Assembly: GCA_016708435.1 (NCBI GenBank) | Contig: JADJFV010000035.1 | Location: 64,001 to 128,000 of the forward strand | Source: Leptospiraceae bacterium | GTDB lineage: Bacteria; Spirochaetota; Leptospiria; Leptospirales; Leptospiraceae | Direction of reading: 5' to 3' | DNA: 64,000 bases | Shown: one piece after another, positions 46-59,767 of the stretch | How positions within the stretch are numbered: the stretch's first letter is position 1 | Layout: the number at the start of each line of letters is the position of its first letter | Program-made: the position numbers and the translations under genes | Notes under the pieces: model-generated | Told to the model about the DNA's origin: nothing | Databases searched by the model: none | Seen by the model: only the letters and a program-made list of their open reading frames with translations

Positions 46-1160
46 TTGTCTTGCTATCGCAAGAAACTTTTTGGTTGGTCGGTTAATCTTTCTCATATAC
101 TAAACGTAGACTTGCGGCATATTCATGTTACCTTTACAATTCCTGGAACTGTATCTAATATTCTTCTTCAAAGAAGAGGCGAAGTCGAAGATATGATTTC
201 CGTAGCAGCAGAAGTTTACAAGAAAGAATTAATCAAATTCGCAAAACTGAAATTTAAGAAGGAAGAATTTACGATTAGCGACAAAGATTGGTTACCCCTG
301 TCACCTCGAACGGCTTCATCGTGAGAGGTCTATCTTGCTTAATACAACCGTTCTTTTGTCAGATAGATTTCTCACGCTCGAAGTTCCACCCGCTGTCGCC
401 GCTACCGCCAAGCGAGGTTCGAAATGACAGTTTAAATTTTAATCCTCATGTTCATCTCGTGGGGACTACGGCAATTATCCACAAAGAAACGAAAGAAGTT
501 TTGCATCTCTCGTTTTTAAGATACAAGAAATTTGCGTTCTCATGGATGAAAGCTTTTTGTAAACATTACGAAAAAGAAAAAGTCCTTACGAAAGCGGAAT
601 GTCTTGTTATCCAAAACAAATACAAAAATGGTTTTCATGTATATTTTCAGCCGATTGCAGGCGATGAGAAAGAACCATTATTTAGAACAGCGGAGTATAT
701 TGCATCAGGATTTTTTCACAATTCGCAAATTCAAAAAGTAGATGATGGTTCGGCAAGCTTGCCGAGGCAACCAACCGGATTAGCAACTGTTACCTTTCGA
801 TACAAGAGTTGGGTAGAGAAAGATACAAGAGAGAAAAGTTTTCAAGAACAAACAATTGATGTTTATGAATTCATGGCGCGGATGTTATTTTTTCTACCTG
901 AACCAAACCGAAAAATGATTCGTTATTATGGAATCTATGCAAACCGAATAAAAGAAAAGCTTGAGTTCATCGAACAACGAACTTGGGCTAAGGCTATTGA
1001 GAATAGTTTTGACGCAAAACCGCAAAACTGCCCAGACTGTTTTAAAAAGATGCAGCTAACCGTTGTTTATTCATATTCAGCTAGAAAAACGATTGAAGGA
1101 TTAAAAAAGACGCATACTTATTTGAACGGTTACTTTCGACCAAAGGCGCGAGCACCATGA
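46..1160 (+). pseudogene. IS91-family rolling-circle (HUH/Y2) transposase. The N-terminus runs off the window start. The gene is split into two frames by a 133-bp palindromic element inserted at 298-430.
   Basis: A Cys cluster at nt 1-60 (SCKSRLCLSCYRKK) looks like the Zn finger. Motif I is HVTFTIPG, the HUH motif is NPHVHLVGT, and the double-Tyr motif is RYYGIYANR. ORFs 46-324 and 288-1160 are in different frames. The first 48 codons of the second ORF are encoded by the inserted element. Confidence 0.6.
298..430 (+). repeat. Palindromic MITE-like element, copy 1. Its termini are CTGTCACCTCGAAC ... GTTCGAAATGACAG.
   Basis: It has 14-bp terminal inverted repeats plus an inner inverted pair, GTGAGAGGTCTATCT / AGATAGATTTCTCAC. 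Related copies lie at 23725-23858, 32661-32829 and 58407-58507. Confidence 0.75.
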
Positions 1161-12758: not shown

Positions 12759-14816
12759 ATGAAACAAATCAAAAATAAAGAATATCGTAAAAAAAAGAAT
12801 GTTATGGAAATCACGATTAGCCGCATTCTACAAACGGCAACGCTACTATTCTTTATTCTAGCCAGTATTGTATTTCAAGCCTGCACTAGCGAAAAAAAGA
12901 TTTTTCCAAAAGCAGAGAAAGGTATTCTTGATTTGCGATCTGCATCCATTGATTCCGAAATAAGTTTAGATGGAGAATGGGAATTTTATCTCTTTACGTT
13001 TATTGATCCAACAAATCCAAACTTAAACCCAGAAAAACAATTCATCCAAGTCCCTGGAATTTGGAATCAGGCAATGAAACAGGGAAAGGGTTATGCAAGT
13101 TATAGACTCCAAGTCTTGTTACCCGATACAAATTCTATTCCTCTCGCTTTTAAGGTTATGGAGAACGGGACTGCCTATAAAATGTTTGTCAACGGAATAG
13201 AAGTAGCGGCTAACGGGCAAATAGGAAAGACAAAGGAAGAAAATATCGCAGAGCATTTGCCACTTGTTGTCCCACTAAAAAACTATTCCCCAAAAATAGA
13301 AATTGTATTTCATGTGTCAAATTTTCATTATACGGATGGAGGACTTTGGTATTCAATTCAGTTGGGAGAGGATTCCAAAATCAGAAAAGCAAAAGAAAAC
13401 AAAATGCTTCTCACATTGTTTTTATGTGGAAGCATTTCAATCATGGCAATTTATCATATTGCCGTTTATCTTTTTAGAAGAAAGGATAAGTCTGCTTTAG
13501 CTTTTAGTCTTTTTTGTATCGCGATAGATTTTAGGCTTCTTGGATTCAATGAAAAGTTTTTGAATCAAATTTTTGTGGGAGATTATTTTCTAATTCTAAA
13601 TCGGATTGAATACCTGGCTTATTATTTGGCGATTCCGTTCTTTGCTAGCTTTCAGCAAATTATTTTTCCAAATGAATTTAGAAAAATATTCTTACATTTT
13701 TTTTTGATTATCTCTTCTTTATTTTCTTTAGTGGTTCTTTTGTTTGATAGTTTTATTTATACACATACAGCCTTTTACTATCATATCTATGTTCTTTTTT
13801 TTATGGGCTATTCAACGTTTGTAATGATAAAAGCAGTAACCAATAATAGAGATGGATCTAAAATTTTTACCTTTGGAATGTTTCTTCTTTTTGCTGTAAC
13901 AATAAATGATATTCTTCATTCTAAGACAATTATTCAAACAGAATTTATGGCTCCCTATGGAATGTTTGGATTTATTTTTATTCAATCCATAATGCTTTCG
14001 ATGAGATTCTCAAAGGGATTTAACATGGCAGAAAAATTAAGTCACGAACTTATACTACTCAATGCAAGTCTTGAAGATAAAATTTTAGAGCGAACAAAAG
14101 AATTAACCAAAAAAAAAGAAATAGCAGAAGAAGCAAGTCTCATCAAAGATAAATTTGTTTCGATTGTATCGCATGACTTGCGATCTCCGCTCTTAGGTGT
14201 ATCGAATATACTTGAAATCATTGACAAAAAAGAAATCGTTACAACCGAAGAAGAAAGAAAACAATTTTTAGAAATGTCTCGCGAGAGTATTAAATTTTCT
14301 TTGAAAATGATAAATGAATTATTAAACTTAAGTCGTATTGAAACCGGCAAAATCAAAGTTAAAAAACAGAATATTTCCGTGCAAGAAATGACTAAATTAT
14401 TTCTAAAAGAATTGGAACCGCAAGCTAAATTAAAAAATATTACAATCAAAACCGAAATTCCATCTCTCCTTTCTATCTATATTGATTTGGAGTTATTTCC
14501 TCAAGTCTTAAAAAATTTGATTACCAATGCAATTAAGTTTACTGAGCCGGAAGGAAATATTTTGATCCGAGGAATCGCGAGCGAAAAAGAATCAATCATT
14601 GAAATTCATGATAACGGCGTTGGGATGAGCGCCGATGAACTCAATCAAATCTTTGAGCCCGGTGCCAAAAAGACAAGGCTTGGAACTTCTGGTGAAATTG
14701 GAAGTGGAATGGGATTATTTATTTGTAAATACATTGTAGATGCACACGGTGGAAAAATCCAATTCATAAGCGAAGAAGGGGTTGGAACAATTTGTAAAAT
14801 TATTTTACCGATATAG
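12759..14816 (+). CDS. Sensor histidine kinase with a 7TMR-DISM extracellular domain, 7TM region, HisKA and HATPase_c
   Basis: It has a signal/TM segment, an extracellular ~180 aa domain (WEFYLF...HYTDGGLW), then 7 TM helices. H-box is SIVSHDLRSPL. G-boxes are HDNGVGM and GSGMGL. Confidence 0.8.
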   Translation: MKQIKNKEYRKKKNVMEITISRILQTATLLFFILASIVFQACTSEKKIFPKAEKGILDLRSASIDSEISLDGEWEFYLFTFIDPTNPNLNPEKQFIQVPGIWNQAMKQGKGYASYRLQVLLPDTNSIPLAFKVMENGTAYKMFVNGIEVAANGQIGKTKEENIAEHLPLVVPLKNYSPKIEIVFHVSNFHYTDGGLWYSIQLGEDSKIRKAKENKMLLTLFLCGSISIMAIYHIAVYLFRRKDKSALAFSLFCIAIDFRLLGFNEKFLNQIFVGDYFLILNRIEYLAYYLAIPFFASFQQIIFPNEFRKIFLHFFLIISSLFSLVVLLFDSFIYTHTAFYYHIYVLFFMGYSTFVMIKAVTNNRDGSKIFTFGMFLLFAVTINDILHSKTIIQTEFMAPYGMFGFIFIQSIMLSMRFSKGFNMAEKLSHELILLNASLEDKILERTKELTKKKEIAEEASLIKDKFVSIVSHDLRSPLLGVSNILEIIDKKEIVTTEEERKQFLEMSRESIKFSLKMINELLNLSRIETGKIKVKKQNISVQEMTKLFLKELEPQAKLKNITIKTEIPSLLSIYIDLELFPQVLKNLITNAIKFTEPEGNILIRGIASEKESIIEIHDNGVGMSADELNQIFEPGAKKTRLGTSGEIGSGMGLFICKYIVDAHGGKIQFISEEGVGTICKIILPI

Positions 14817-26098: not shown

Positions 26099-26272
26099 CT
26101 TATCGCAATGATTATGGGGCGAGGGTTTTGGGGAATTAAAATTTTTTGGGAGGAGTTATGGGCTTTCTGGTTCTATTAGACAATGGAGTTCGATTATTCT
26201 GTGATTTCTTATCTTCTGAATAGGTTAATGCAATTTGGAGAACTGGCAATTGTATCATACCACCCTTTATCC

Positions 26273-51653: not shown

Positions 51654-53403
51654 TCAGCTTGTGTATAAGCTTTCACTCACATACAGGCTATTACCCTCAA
51701 TTTTCTTTGACTGCTTTTTTGCTTTTGCTGCCAAATCTGCAATGTCTACGTAAGACTTGCATTTAGCTGTAGAGTTAGGATCAACTACACCTATGGATAA
51801 ACTTATTAGAGGATAAAATTTTTTCTCACCGTATCTACTTTCTGCGTGAATACCGCCTGCTTTTAGATCATCCTCTTTATAATGTTTGGAAATAATATTT
51901 TTAAACTTTCCCAAAATCACTTCACATCGATAATACCAATTTTCACAGGTAAAAATTACAATAAAATCATCTCCACCTATATGGCCAACTTGACCATTCT
52001 CTATCGGAACACATTCAATGAGAATATTTCCTAATGCTTTTATTATTTCATCTCCAGCGGAATATCCATATATATCGTTAAACGGTTTGAAGTTATCTAA
52101 ATCAAAATAGGCAACACTGAACGGTATTCTTTTTTCTAGAGATCGATTAATGCACTCGTTTATTGGGACACTACCCGGTAAAAGAGTAAGAGGGTTAGCA
52201 TGTCTGGCATATTTAATTTGCAAGTGCGTAATTTCTTCCAATACATCCATAATAGTTCCGATTCCCGCATACTTATTATTATGCGTGATGATAAATGCAG
52301 TATCATTTCTCATTGTGGAAGTTAATTGTTTACTGACTGCCTGAATTGAAATATTTGCATCAATGCTTAATGGAGTTTTATCTATAAAATGCCTAATGGG
52401 TTTTTTCCCATGCAATTCTAATCCATAACGAGTGGAAAATAATTTAGAAATAAATAATTCACGAAATATAATTCCCGTTCCTGTATGATTGTCAACTAAG
52501 GGTAAGATAGTAAGTGAACTGTTCTGCTGAAACAATAGCATAACTTCTGAAATGGGCATTTCGGAAGAGACTGGTTGAATAAAATTACAAATACTAGATA
52601 TTGGTTTTGTAGAATTAAATGGATCATAGTCATTATTTGGATTTTCTGAAACAAACAATTGGCTATCAATATGTTTTAAAGGAAAAAGTGCAGGTCTTCC
52701 AAAGTAATTTCCTTGTGCGTGCGTTATTCCAAGTTTTTCGATTGTCCTAAATTCTTCTTCTGTTTCAACACCTGTTGCGATTACATTGCAATGAAGGGAG
52801 CTTGCAATATTTTGAATGGACGATATAAATTTAAATTTAATTGGATCTTCAGCAATGCCTTCCACAAAATGATTATTTATTTTTATATATTCAGGCAGTA
52901 TCTCTGACCAGAATTTTAATCCAGAGTAGCTTGTGTCTAAATCATTCAATGCTATTTCAAATCCCATATCTCTGTATTTTTAATGCAGTTTTAAGCATTA
53001 AATCACTATTATCCGTTGGTTGATATTCTTTTAATTCAATTACAATGCTACTCGGTGCAATTCCAAATTCTTCAAGAAAATTAAGTAGCATGCTCTGTTC
53101 AAAATCTGCCTCTATAAATGTTGATACATTGACACTAATAAAAAGTTTTTCTCTTATACCTAAACTAGCATAACGATGTATAATTGATTCTTGTGTAATT
53201 AATTCAAGTTTTTTAAGTAGATTAAAATGATTTGCAATGCTGAATAATTTTGCATTGCTGTGTAACGGACTGTCCGAAGGTCCGCGAATGATTGCTTCAT
53301 AACCAATTATATTTTTATATGTCAAAGATACAATCGGTTGAATATATAGGTTCACTTTCTTATTAGTGAGAATATGGATTAATTCTTGTTTTATATTTTG
53401 CAT
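51654..53403 (-). pseudogene. EAL-CBS-GGDEF protein with unusual domain order, degenerate motifs and a frameshift inside the EAL domain
   Basis: ORF 52957-53403 is the EAL N-half (YQPIVSL...GYEAIIRGP). ORF 51654-52967 continues the EAL domain in another frame (GFEIALNDLDTSYSGL), then a CBS pair, then GGDEF with GGDDF. One extra G/C in the CCC run at 52963-52965 causes the frame change. Confidence 0.6.
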
Positions 53404-53710
53404 TTTTTTCTTACGACTATTAAACGAACGAATGGTGCTCTATTAATTAGATCCATAATATTTTTTTTGAAATGAATCAACAAGACTGGAATAAAAGGCA
53501 TCAAAAATACTTTCGCTTGAATATCTTTCAAAAAATTATCATTTCAGTTACAAAATTGCATTTTAACAAAGGGATAAATATTTTATCATGTAATTGAAAC
53601 GTAATGTTATAATTGAAAAAATGAATCAATTTAATTTGACTAATCTTTATGCAATAAATACTTTGGCGGTAACTTCGTATTAGGCGAAGAATTATATTTA
53701 GAGGCGTGTC

Positions 53711-53947
53711 ATGTCAAAAGAAAAAAAAGAGTTAGAGTGCAAAATGGTTGGTTCAGTAAGTGAAGTGAATACTCAATTAAAACTTCTTTTAGATGCATTT
53801 TCAGAAGGCAATATCGTGATTGCTGACGGCGAGGATGTAGTTCGATTGTCGCCTGCTGGTTCTGTATCTCTCGAAATAGATACAAATGTAAAGAGCGAAA
53901 AAGAAAAATATATATTGAGATATCTTGGAAAAAACCTAAGCCTGTAG
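53711..53947 (+). CDS. Small hypothetical protein (78 aa)
   Basis: Only the ORF is seen. It lies in an AT-rich intergenic island. Confidence 0.35.
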   Translation: MSKEKKELECKMVGSVSEVNTQLKLLLDAFSEGNIVIADGEDVVRLSPAGSVSLEIDTNVKSEKEKYILRYLGKNLSL

Positions 53948-54089: not shown

Positions 54090-54353
54090 TTAAATAGGTT
54101 TTGAGCCATTCCATTTCTCATGGATTGGGCTTATAATATCGCCAATGAAAAGGACGGTATCTTTTGCGCACCCGAAAGAAGACATTTTAGAATTATTTTT
54201 TATTGGAACCAACTTAGCCATGGGAATTCCACGTTTAGTAATTGTTAATTCAGGATAAAGATTTCCAACATCCTCAAGGATTTTTAAACATTGTGCTTTA
54301 AATTTTCCAGCTGCAATTTCCATTATTCCCTCCACTAAATTGACTATAGTCAT
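54090..54353 (-). CDS. Phd/YefM-type antitoxin domain protein (orphan)
   Basis: The core is MTIVNLVEGIMEIAAGKFKAQCLKILEDVGNLYPELTITKRGIPMAKLVP. The C-terminal FGCAKDTVLFIGDIISPIHEKW resembles the VapB/Phd C-terminal motif. The ORF track extends upstream to 54485. Confidence 0.5.
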   Translation of the reverse strand: MTIVNLVEGIMEIAAGKFKAQCLKILEDVGNLYPELTITKRGIPMAKLVPIKNNSKMSSFGCAKDTVLFIGDIISPIHEKWNGSKPI

Positions 54354-54494
54354 TTCACTATGGTTATTTGAAGTAGTCAAGTGATAATCAACAATTTCAA
54401 TATCAAGCGCATTGCAATCTATAACTCGTTGGTGCTTTAAAATTTGTAAAACCGCAGCAATATCGTAATTTGCCCATAGATTCAATTATTATTT

Positions 54495-55460
54495 TTATTT
54501 CGATAGAATCCATTTTTTATCTACAAAATTTATTTTTGCAGAATCTGGTAAAAAATTCCTTTCATCTGAAAAATCATTAAAATATAAAATGTTAACAGAA
54601 TTATTGTTCATCCAAACCGGGGAAAGAATTCCTTCTTTAATACTAAATTCTTCCTCTAATTCATTATTATTTTGATGATTAACAAAATAAATTTTTAAGC
54701 CATTCCCGCAATAATAAGCTGGCGTTCCGTCGGGACAATAATCAGCATCAATTAGTTTCGTATAATCGTCTGATATTACAGGATAATTCCAAAACTCATA
54801 GTCTTTTCCTGATTTAGAATTGATTAGCATTATTCTACTACCTTCGTAGTATTGTATGACAAGGGAATAATAATTAATTTCAGGGATATGTTCTAAAAAT
54901 CGGTAGAATCTACTTACTTCTGTGTTTCCATCTTTCAAAATTAACTTTTCTCCATTCTCTAGTGAAAGAATCAATTCATTTACATTTCGCTGAACGAGTT
55001 TACTGAATTCAATTTTCTTTAATTGAATTGGTTCAATTTTATTATAACATTCAAATGAATTAGAAATTCCTTCACAAATAGCTTTCCATTTTTGGTTTGG
55101 CGCATAACTATGAAAATTTCCCGGAGATTCTTTCACGATGTAGCCAGAAAAAACCCAACCACGTCCAAATTTAGATTCTATTAACACCCAGTGGTCTTTA
55201 ATGCTATTTACAATATCTTCTCTGGAATCTGTTTCTATATGCTTTAGCTTAGTGCGAAAAGGTAATAAATAAATGGATTTACTTTTTATATCTGGCTTTT
55301 CTCGTAGATGAATTCCTGATTTCGATGAAGTCCAAAAATAAATTTCTTCTTCTTTTTTTATATCTTCTTTTTGAACATTTATTTCCTTTGGGAGTTCAAT
55401 ATTTTTTTCTTTGCAAAATCCAAAAAGGAGAATTAGTAATAAGAGTTTAGAGAACATCAT
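54495..55460 (-). CDS. Secreted hypothetical protein with a bacterial SH3-like segment
   Basis: It has a signal peptide (MMFSKLLLLILLFGFC). FWTSSKSGIHLREKPDIKSKSIYLLPFRTKL is SH3b-like. Confidence 0.5.
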   Translation of the reverse strand: MMFSKLLLLILLFGFCKEKNIELPKEINVQKEDIKKEEEIYFWTSSKSGIHLREKPDIKSKSIYLLPFRTKLKHIETDSREDIVNSIKDHWVLIESKFGRGWVFSGYIVKESPGNFHSYAPNQKWKAICEGISNSFECYNKIEPIQLKKIEFSKLVQRNVNELILSLENGEKLILKDGNTEVSRFYRFLEHIPEINYYSLVIQYYEGSRIMLINSKSGKDYEFWNYPVISDDYTKLIDADYCPDGTPAYYCGNGLKIYFVNHQNNNELEEEFSIKEGILSPVWMNNNSVNILYFNDFSDERNFLPDSAKINFVDKKWILSK

Positions 55461-59501: not shown

Positions 59502-59756
59502 CTAATTTGATTTTTTAGATTCGGGTTCTAAGTTTAAGGGGTTACACACTGTATTGCGCCCTTTATAGCTCTCTAGCATTTTATTGTAATCTATGACTCC
59601 ATCGTCATTGAATAAATCTCTACGGATATAATGCTCTCCATTTTCGTAATAATTGCCAATACTATCACAATCATTGATGTCAATATTGGCATGGCTTTTT
59701 TCTCTTTCCACAATTGGCTTGGAAAAATACCAAGCCAAGTATGAGGTAAATGGCAA
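59502..59756 (-). CDS. Hypothetical protein (84 aa)
   Basis: Only the ORF is seen. Confidence 0.3.
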   Translation of the reverse strand: MPFTSYLAWYFSKPIVEREKSHANIDINDCDSIGNYYENGEHYIRRDLFNDDGVIDYNKMLESYKGRNTVCNPLNLEPESKKSN

Positions 59757-59767
59757 ATGCTTTCATT

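Follow-up and report, generated by a model that had tools for sequence, protein, structure and literature searches.

A frameshifted EAL-CBS-GGDEF gene in a Leptospiraceae genome assembly: placement and probable origin of the extra base

A single gene in a large family

The closest described counterparts of the gene treated here are two Pseudomonas proteins involved in the turnover of cyclic di-GMP (c-di-GMP). PA3258 of P. aeruginosa is an EAL-CBS-GGDEF protein whose in vivo phenotypes fit phosphodiesterase activity, with an apparent residual cyclase activity when the phosphodiesterase activity is abolished, and RapA of P. fluorescens has been named as a phosphodiesterase homologous to it (PMC12900916). 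RapA is a Pho-regulated enzyme that depletes c-di-GMP and brings about release of the adhesin LapA (PMC3032545). We have analyzed a gene with this same order of domains (EAL, CBS pair and GGDEF-like, as in PA3258 and in RapA of strain Pf0-1) in a stretch of 64,000 nucleotides, hereafter the window, from the metagenome-assembled genome (MAG) of a Leptospiraceae bacterium (assembly GCA_016708435.1, contig JADJFV010000035.1, positions 64,001 to 128,000). The gene lies on the minus strand at 51654..53403 of the window and its frame is interrupted by one extra base, which is probably an artefact of the assembly.

In the list of open reading frames (ORFs) of the window the locus appears as two, both on the minus strand: ORF A (53403..52957, 148 amino acids) and ORF B (52967..51654, 437 amino acids). 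The two are in different frames and share 11 nt, and the stop of ORF A falls 8 nt past the start codon of ORF B. ORF A holds the N-terminal half of the EAL domain followed by five out-of-frame residues (IQRYG I, then the TGA stop), and ORF B, which starts at the internal Met146, holds the C-terminal half, the CBS pair and the GGDEF-like domain. The Pfam EAL profile is cut in two accordingly, with positions 7–138 on ORF A and 145–236 on ORF B, the latter also matching Pfam CBS and GGDEF. Removal of one base gives a single frame of 582 codons, the product of which (582 amino acids) gives a single EAL match over the full length of the domain (146.8 bits, profile positions 7–236), one CBS match (residues 338–391, 23.6–23.7 bits, just below the cut-off of 24 bits) and a GGDEF match of 49.9 bits that covers only profile positions 23–93. 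Since the EAL profile split across the two ORFs rejoins on repair, ORFs A and B are one gene, and the locus is a single EAL/CBS-pair/GGDEF gene rather than two genes. An intact protein of 582 amino acids (P0001) is 99% identical to the repaired product. The EAL domain comprises residues 11–237 (52692..53373), the CBS pair about residues 264–399 (52206..52613) and the GGDEF-like domain residues 400–576 (51675..52205). Thus far a preliminary description of this DNA, in which an N-terminal EAL domain divided between two frames was followed by a CBS pair and a C-terminal GGDEF domain, agrees with the Pfam matches. A Pfam scan of the other overlapping same-strand ORF pairs of the window found no further split domains, and Rfam gave no matches over the whole window. 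The GC content of the gene is 32%, compared with 36% for the window.

The same description had presented the domain order as a departure from the usual GGDEF-EAL arrangement. The reversal is real, but the rarity that it implied is not, given thousands of homologs and the earlier description of PA3258 and RapA (PMC12900916). With the repaired window protein as query we obtained 3951 matches at E ≤ 0.001, and with a Stutzerimonas member as query 7646 matches at E ≤ 1e-30. EAL-CBS-GGDEF is thus the normal domain order in a very large family of collinear homologs, found in data with one genome per species in Methylococcales, Pseudomonas, Stutzerimonas, betaproteobacterial lineages (Burkholderiales, Nitrosomonadales) and Desulfobulbus. 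NCBIfam has no dedicated model for it and gives only generic EAL and GGDEF matches far below the equivalog cut-offs. The Leptospiraceae protein is collinear with the Pseudomonas and Stutzerimonas members over residues 8–578 (~99% of its length) at 36–39% identity and, by its architecture and this level of identity, would be the Leptospiraceae copy of the RapA/PA3258 type. In short, the type of protein is familiar and the host lineage is new.

The nearest relatives outside the species are proteins of Methylococcales and Beggiatoa (60–65% identity), and there is no other spirochete among the best 80 species representatives, a distribution that suggests horizontal acquisition of the spirochete gene. 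A scan of genome contigs, again with one genome per species, gave no record more than 63% identical, and thus did not recover a representative of the species of the window itself. RpoD, DnaG, the SH3 protein, OmpA, DUF3805 and the hemerythrin of the window have exact counterparts among MAG proteins that bear the name 'Leptospiraceae bacterium'.

Placement and origin of the extra base

The window was compared with 32 conspecific loci, and ~32.7 kb of it is covered by at least three of these. Two contigs that carry P0001, L001 (from ENA, 99.1% identical in DNA over 8.9 kb) and L002 (from Logan, 99.8% over 3.3 kb), align to the window with a lone gap inside the gene, where the window has TTAAAAATACAG and both of them TTAAAATACAG. 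The intact alleles of the same haplotype (L001, L002 and L098) read TTAAAATAC, with four A on the gene strand, and the window reads TTAAAAATAC, with five, while the remaining alleles among the sixteen compared show TTACAATAC at this position. All five loci covering 52977–52981 disagree with the window. The preliminary description had located the extra base in a nearby CCC run (plus strand, 52963–52965), from which the removal of one base also reopens the long frame. However, the corresponding GGG of the gene strand is unchanged in all sixteen alleles, with ten intact ones among the alignments, and the difference in length is confined to the A run, which places the extra base in the plus-strand T5 at 52977–52981, after codon Lys142. 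The residues at the site point the same way: repair in CCC would give ...ALKIQRYGFEIAL..., i.e., KIQRYG, where the true protein sequence is ...TALKYRDMGFEIALNDL..., with KYRDMG in the intact alleles of the same haplotype and HYRxMGFEIALDDL as family consensus. We give the CCC placement practically no chance of being correct.

The gene is intact in L001, L002 and L095–L100, and also in L093, a locus that shows only part of it. Members of the 582-amino-acid cluster come from ENA, JGI, Logan and NCBI on many contigs (MBK6605352.1, MBK9499110.1, MBL0263675.1 and MBP9190908.1 among them). The private small indels of the window number exactly three over its covered part. All are of 1 bp and in A/T runs, and each one disrupts a gene found intact in all the other assemblies (other frameshifted alleles of the first gene are described below). 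Besides the EAL-CBS-GGDEF gene, they affect its divergent neighbour, an amphi-Trp domain gene on the plus strand (53711..53947), in which one A is missing from A5GA5 at 53898–53908, and a minus-strand gene for a putative lipoprotein of 87 amino acids (MKAFAIYLILGLVLSQANCGKKK..., about 59505–59766), with one extra T in a T6 run at 59696–59701. The amphi-Trp product has 78 amino acids in the window and 96 on more than 100 other contigs. The truncated version (MBK7058398.1, flanked by MBK7058396.1 and MBK7058400.1) is known from one contig only, of 321,773 nt. At the lipoprotein gene, all eight conspecific loci disagree with the window. The segment from 50.9 to 54.3 kb contains two of the private frameshifts and 0 private single-nucleotide polymorphisms (SNPs). 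We have dropped the argument of an excess of private indels over SNPs for the window as a whole, where other regions contain ~150 private SNPs, and it is valid for 50.9–54.3 kb only.

Other assemblies of the species served as controls. The sister NCBI MAGs JADJBD01 and JADKCW01, which have similar accessions and long contigs and which we assume to be long-read assemblies, have five private small indels each in about 17 kb, and three assemblies that we assume to be of short reads have 0 in 14–20 kb. JADKCW01 breaks the same EAL-CBS-GGDEF gene, at two different A6 runs. Between the repaired allele of the window and L001 there are six synonymous differences and 0 nonsynonymous ones, hence no sign of secondary decay. 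An exact look-up of the ORF A and ORF B products found neither in collections of 15 billion proteins and of contigs. As products of pseudogenes are not listed by NCBI, this result does not tell an artefact and a private allele apart, and the absence of both as protein records would fit annotation of the locus as a pseudogene. Scans of metagenome contigs with the five-A and then the four-A allele gave 0 matches each; the JGI-derived loci that we compared carry the other haplotype, TTACAATAC.

Real frameshifts of this gene do occur. In six ENA assemblies (L113–L118, ERZ2215xxxx/ERZ2216xxxx), whose SPAdes-style contig names suggest short reads, a 7-bp tandem duplication of GATATGG at about position 432–438 disrupts the frame of the same gene. 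It lies 20 nt downstream of the A run, is not in a homopolymer and is present on at least three haplotypes. The resulting frame is the same +1 frame, with the same TGA stop and the same ORF B of 437 amino acids. One of the six (L116) has in addition a deletion of 76 bp inside the GGDEF domain. Separately, a JGI locus (L094) carries two 1-bp deletions near the 3′ end of the gene that lead to a product of 575 amino acids.

Taken together, these comparisons indicate that the extra A is probably an assembly artefact, a homopolymer error left uncorrected in a long-read MAG. The frame would have been broken by one A added to the A4 run after Lys142, and the organism would make the intact protein of 582 amino acids. 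The accession series suggests that the source MAG may belong to an activated-sludge set assembled from Nanopore plus Illumina data (BioProject PRJNA629478), the MAGs of which have been described, in a study that mined the set, as population bins rather than strains (PMC9765116). Several points weigh against this interpretation or the account of the protein that goes with it. The artefact is deduced from a comparison of assemblies and membership of the Nanopore project from the accession series and contig sizes. A change from A4 to A5 involves a short run for a homopolymer error, and some 15 kb of the window (26–41 kb) is without private indels, so that the assembly is not uniformly poor. The 7-bp duplication is genuine and shows that inactivation of this gene takes place in nature. 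As to the protein, orthology with RapA and PA3258 would follow from shared architecture and a published description, and all statements on function made here are predictions from sequence. With these provisos, of the two options left by the preliminary description, a pseudogene in decay or a non-catalytic protein with a sequencing error in its gene, the second is favored by a private homopolymer indel in a gene with no other decay. That description had also proposed to look for an intact frame in related genomes, and most conspecific alleles indeed have one. A two-ORF split conserved in orthologs, which it had held to speak against a recent frameshift, was not found, most alleles being intact and one other population having been split independently.

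If the extra A were instead a real mutation of very recent date and confined to this strain, the locus would be either a fresh pseudogene or the source of a product of 437 amino acids, made up of half an EAL barrel plus CBS-GGDDF. The separate GATATGG allele only 20 nt away, in several haplotypes, is in favor of such an event, as are the stretch free of private indels just mentioned and the catalytic degeneration of the EAL domain, the loss of which may cost little. However, five A are found in no other assembly, and ORFs A and B are missing from a protein collection in which intact forms are common. Two further private homopolymer frameshifts affect unrelated neighbours, with no private SNP in the same 3.3 kb, and the same class of indel is found in sister MAGs of the accession series and in none of the presumed short-read assemblies. 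The allele, moreover, is without secondary decay. We regard a real mutation as unlikely, though far from negligible. A bolder version, which we think improbable, is that the breaks are both real and recurrent, with populations repeatedly severing an EAL half that is already dead in a domain fission in progress, both breaks leaving the ORF of 437 amino acids. Were this true, a free-standing CBS-GGDDF protein would be left, and it is in the invariant GGDDF domain that the enzymatic core of the whole RapA/PA3258 family, possibly a non-canonical one, would really lie. Finally, the split could be functional, either by a programmed +1 slip at AAA-AUA that restores the full length or as a translationally coupled protein in two pieces. 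A tRNA-Lys on AAA could in principle slip within the A5 run and pair again one base downstream, the stop of ORF A is close to the ORF B start codon, and the independent duplication allele gives the same pair of ORFs. That the two alleles look alike, however, is a matter of construction, as any +1 insertion here reaches the same TGA and the same first in-frame ATG. The site is also not conserved as a programmed frameshift site would be among orthologs: the other alleles of the same haplotype all have A4 and a single ORF, and 77 of 77 species representatives of the family are single ORFs. No stimulatory element was seen, although no search was aimed at one. A functional split is thus very improbable.

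With the artefact as the preferred explanation, the locus illustrates how an indel of one base in a homopolymer of a MAG can mimic a pseudogene and how it can be recognized by means of conspecific assemblies. Only two points are of mild interest in themselves, the natural 7-bp duplication allele and the lineage-specific loss of residues in the EAL domain.

The EAL, CBS and GGDEF-like domains

Residue tables were compiled from the 77 species representatives. Among them the EAL catalytic set is nearly invariant (E36, L38, R40, N90, E123, E126, D153, D154, G156, G158, K174, D176, E210, E213 and Q230). The Leptospiraceae protein departs from the family by L38I, N90S, T125K, D153N, G156D, G158S, D176N, E210T and Y232N, and retains the Glu and Arg of ExLxR (E36 and R40), D154 and K174. 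The motifs quoted in the preliminary description are all present, EAI at 53290–53298, NDLDTSYSGL at 52917–52946 and, in the C-terminal domain, GGDDF at 51963–51977. Three metal or substrate ligands are changed (N90S, D153N, D176N), as are the two glycines of loop 6 (G156D, G158S); the roles of these ligands are those that we presume from mapping the residues of RocR and TBD1265 by motif. The catalytic-base Glu of EGVE, present in 76 of the 77 representatives, is gone as well, the equivalent motif being ATGVE (52764–52778), and loss of this base is a criterion for an EAL domain inactive as phosphodiesterase (PMC12900916). The EAL domain is therefore predicted to hydrolyse c-di-GMP no longer, and the non-catalytic reading put forward earlier is supported for the EAL domain of this lineage. 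This sets the protein apart from RapA, a verified c-di-GMP phosphodiesterase, and from PA3258, whose behaviour in vivo is that of such an enzyme (PMC3032545, PMC12900916). Every EAL catalytic residue is retained in the Pseudomonas-type members, whereas the Leptospiraceae protein has N90S, D153N, D176N and E210T in addition to the changes in loop 6.

Evolution has been faster in the EAL domain, which is 56% identical to the Methylococcales-type members, compared with 75% among those members, and 39% identical to Pseudomonas, compared with 48.5% for Methylococcales. The acceleration is confined to this domain and does not extend to the CBS and GGDEF parts. Between the two main alleles of the species the ratio of nonsynonymous to synonymous substitution rates (dN/dS) was 0.15 for EAL and 0.12–0.14 for GGDEF, and the CBS region had 0 nonsynonymous changes. 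From these values the EAL domain appears to be altered, not decaying, and under purifying selection. By analogy with the EAL domains of LapD and FimX, it may act as a c-di-GMP-binding or regulatory module. These share the fold, the predicted structure matching LapD and FimX at Foldseek ranks 26–32 and 42–46, and likewise lack catalytic residues; binding of c-di-GMP by the Leptospiraceae domain is putative. There are also differences: LapD and FimX have the GGDEF-EAL order and other partner domains, while the order of the Leptospiraceae protein is reversed and its EAL domain retains the Glu and Arg of ExLxR.

A second case of degeneration was found in two proteins from Methylococcaceae MAGs, P0027 and P0118, with E36H, N90T, E126N or E126D, D154N, E210T and E213N, plus D153N in P0027. 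They have the same architecture, with conserved CBS and GGDDF domains. Their EAL domains are ~51% identical to that of Leptospiraceae, less than to canonical members, and the two degenerations look independent. At least two lineages, Leptospiraceae and a Methylococcaceae clade, would thus have lost EAL catalysis independently and kept CBS-GGDDF under selection, which suggests a separate function for the C-terminal half. Compared with relatives in which the EAL catalytic set is intact, the Leptospiraceae protein shows equal conservation of its CBS pair and GGDDF domain.

The central CBS pair is considered present even though its Pfam match here is 0.3–0.4 bits under the cut-off. Of 38 family members aligned, 34 match Pfam CBS (best E 6.4e-10), and the AF2 model (mean pLDDT 79) has two predicted beta-alpha-beta-beta-alpha units in residues 264–399. 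A Foldseek search with the whole model gave only EAL domains among the top 50 PDB hits, and hence no independent confirmation of the CBS pair. Its role may be to gate the GGDDF output domain. The sensing of an adenosyl ligand by the pair, along the lines proposed in the preliminary description, would be no more than a conjecture.

The GGDEF-like domain departs from the GG[D/E]EF signature in the fourth residue, which is Asp. The preliminary description had counted GGDDF as a degenerate motif, but it is invariant in all 77 representatives, as are HIGGDDF, NPLTLLPG, DxDNFKPFND, GD, K562 and K566, and GGDDF and the motifs around it are identical throughout the family, Pseudomonas and Stutzerimonas members included. 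GGDDF is thus a family trait under strong constraint and not a mark of decay. The equivalents of the metal-binding Asp and of the guanine and phosphate contacts are kept (D434/D436, N442, D451, K562 and K566); we take them, by motif, to correspond to PleD D327, N335, D344, K442 and R446. The RxxD I-site is absent five residues upstream of GGDDF, where the sequence is PIENGQVGHI, but this site is not required for catalysis. The domain may be the output of the protein, as a weak or regulated diguanylate cyclase or as a GTP sensor, and the GTP-sensing GEDEF of PdeA (CC3396) is presumably a further non-canonical parallel. GGDQF and GNDEF domains can retain diguanylate cyclase activity (PMC12900916). 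Like GGDDF, the motifs of ZMO1055 and ZMO0401 (GGDQF/GNDEF) are non-canonical, and here the motif-equivalent metal and guanine residues are conserved; those two proteins, however, are GGDEF-EAL, whereas the Leptospiraceae protein has the reverse order with a CBS pair in between. In the literature consulted we found no biochemistry on a GGDDF domain, the motif that is invariant in this large family. A weak Pfam match to Cas10/Cmr2 palm2 over the GGDEF-like domain, seen in 10 of 38 family members (best E 4.4e-05), probably reflects only the shared palm fold.

Surroundings and variation among strains

The genomic context offers no functional clue, because the neighbours are not conserved beside family members: in 80 other species none of the amphi-Trp, DUF3805 and 131-amino-acid genes was found next to one, and the LuxR-type response regulator gave one weak match. 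In contrast to the Pho-regulated RapA, the Leptospiraceae locus is without a Pho context, and its neighbours (LuxR-type response regulator, amphi-Trp) are lineage-specific. The region between the EAL-CBS-GGDEF gene and the amphi-Trp gene (53412–53660), which presumably holds the promoters of both, is hypervariable, with many substitutions and several indels in comparison with L001, and is nearly identical in L002.

Beyond the amphi-Trp gene, the region 54090–55460 also varies. A gene for an SH3 lipoprotein is found there in the window, L001 and L098, adjoined in the window and L001 by an ORF of 131 amino acids. Among the other strains (L093–L100 compared) the equivalent place is taken by a PIN toxin and a partner of 86 amino acids, and in L093 by an MCP-signal gene, an extra EAL protein, an IS110 transposase and a PAS-GGDEF gene. 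At 26157–26257 all conspecific alignments break, since other strains carry an island of 7–8 kb that is missing from the window, between a VitK2-biosynthesis gene and rpsU. It encodes a Y4kK/S8 peptidase, an AAA/nSTAND3 ATPase and a Type ISP or MmeI-like restriction-modification enzyme, and looks like a variable defence island. A 7TMR-DISM histidine kinase of 685 amino acids is intact in the window and is split into 354 and 330 amino acids in the sister MAG JADJBD01 (L103), at a T8/T7 run (window 13795–13802), an instance in another MAG of the indel class seen in the window. The beginning of the window (288–1160) contains an ORF for a putative transposase of the Y2_Tnp family.

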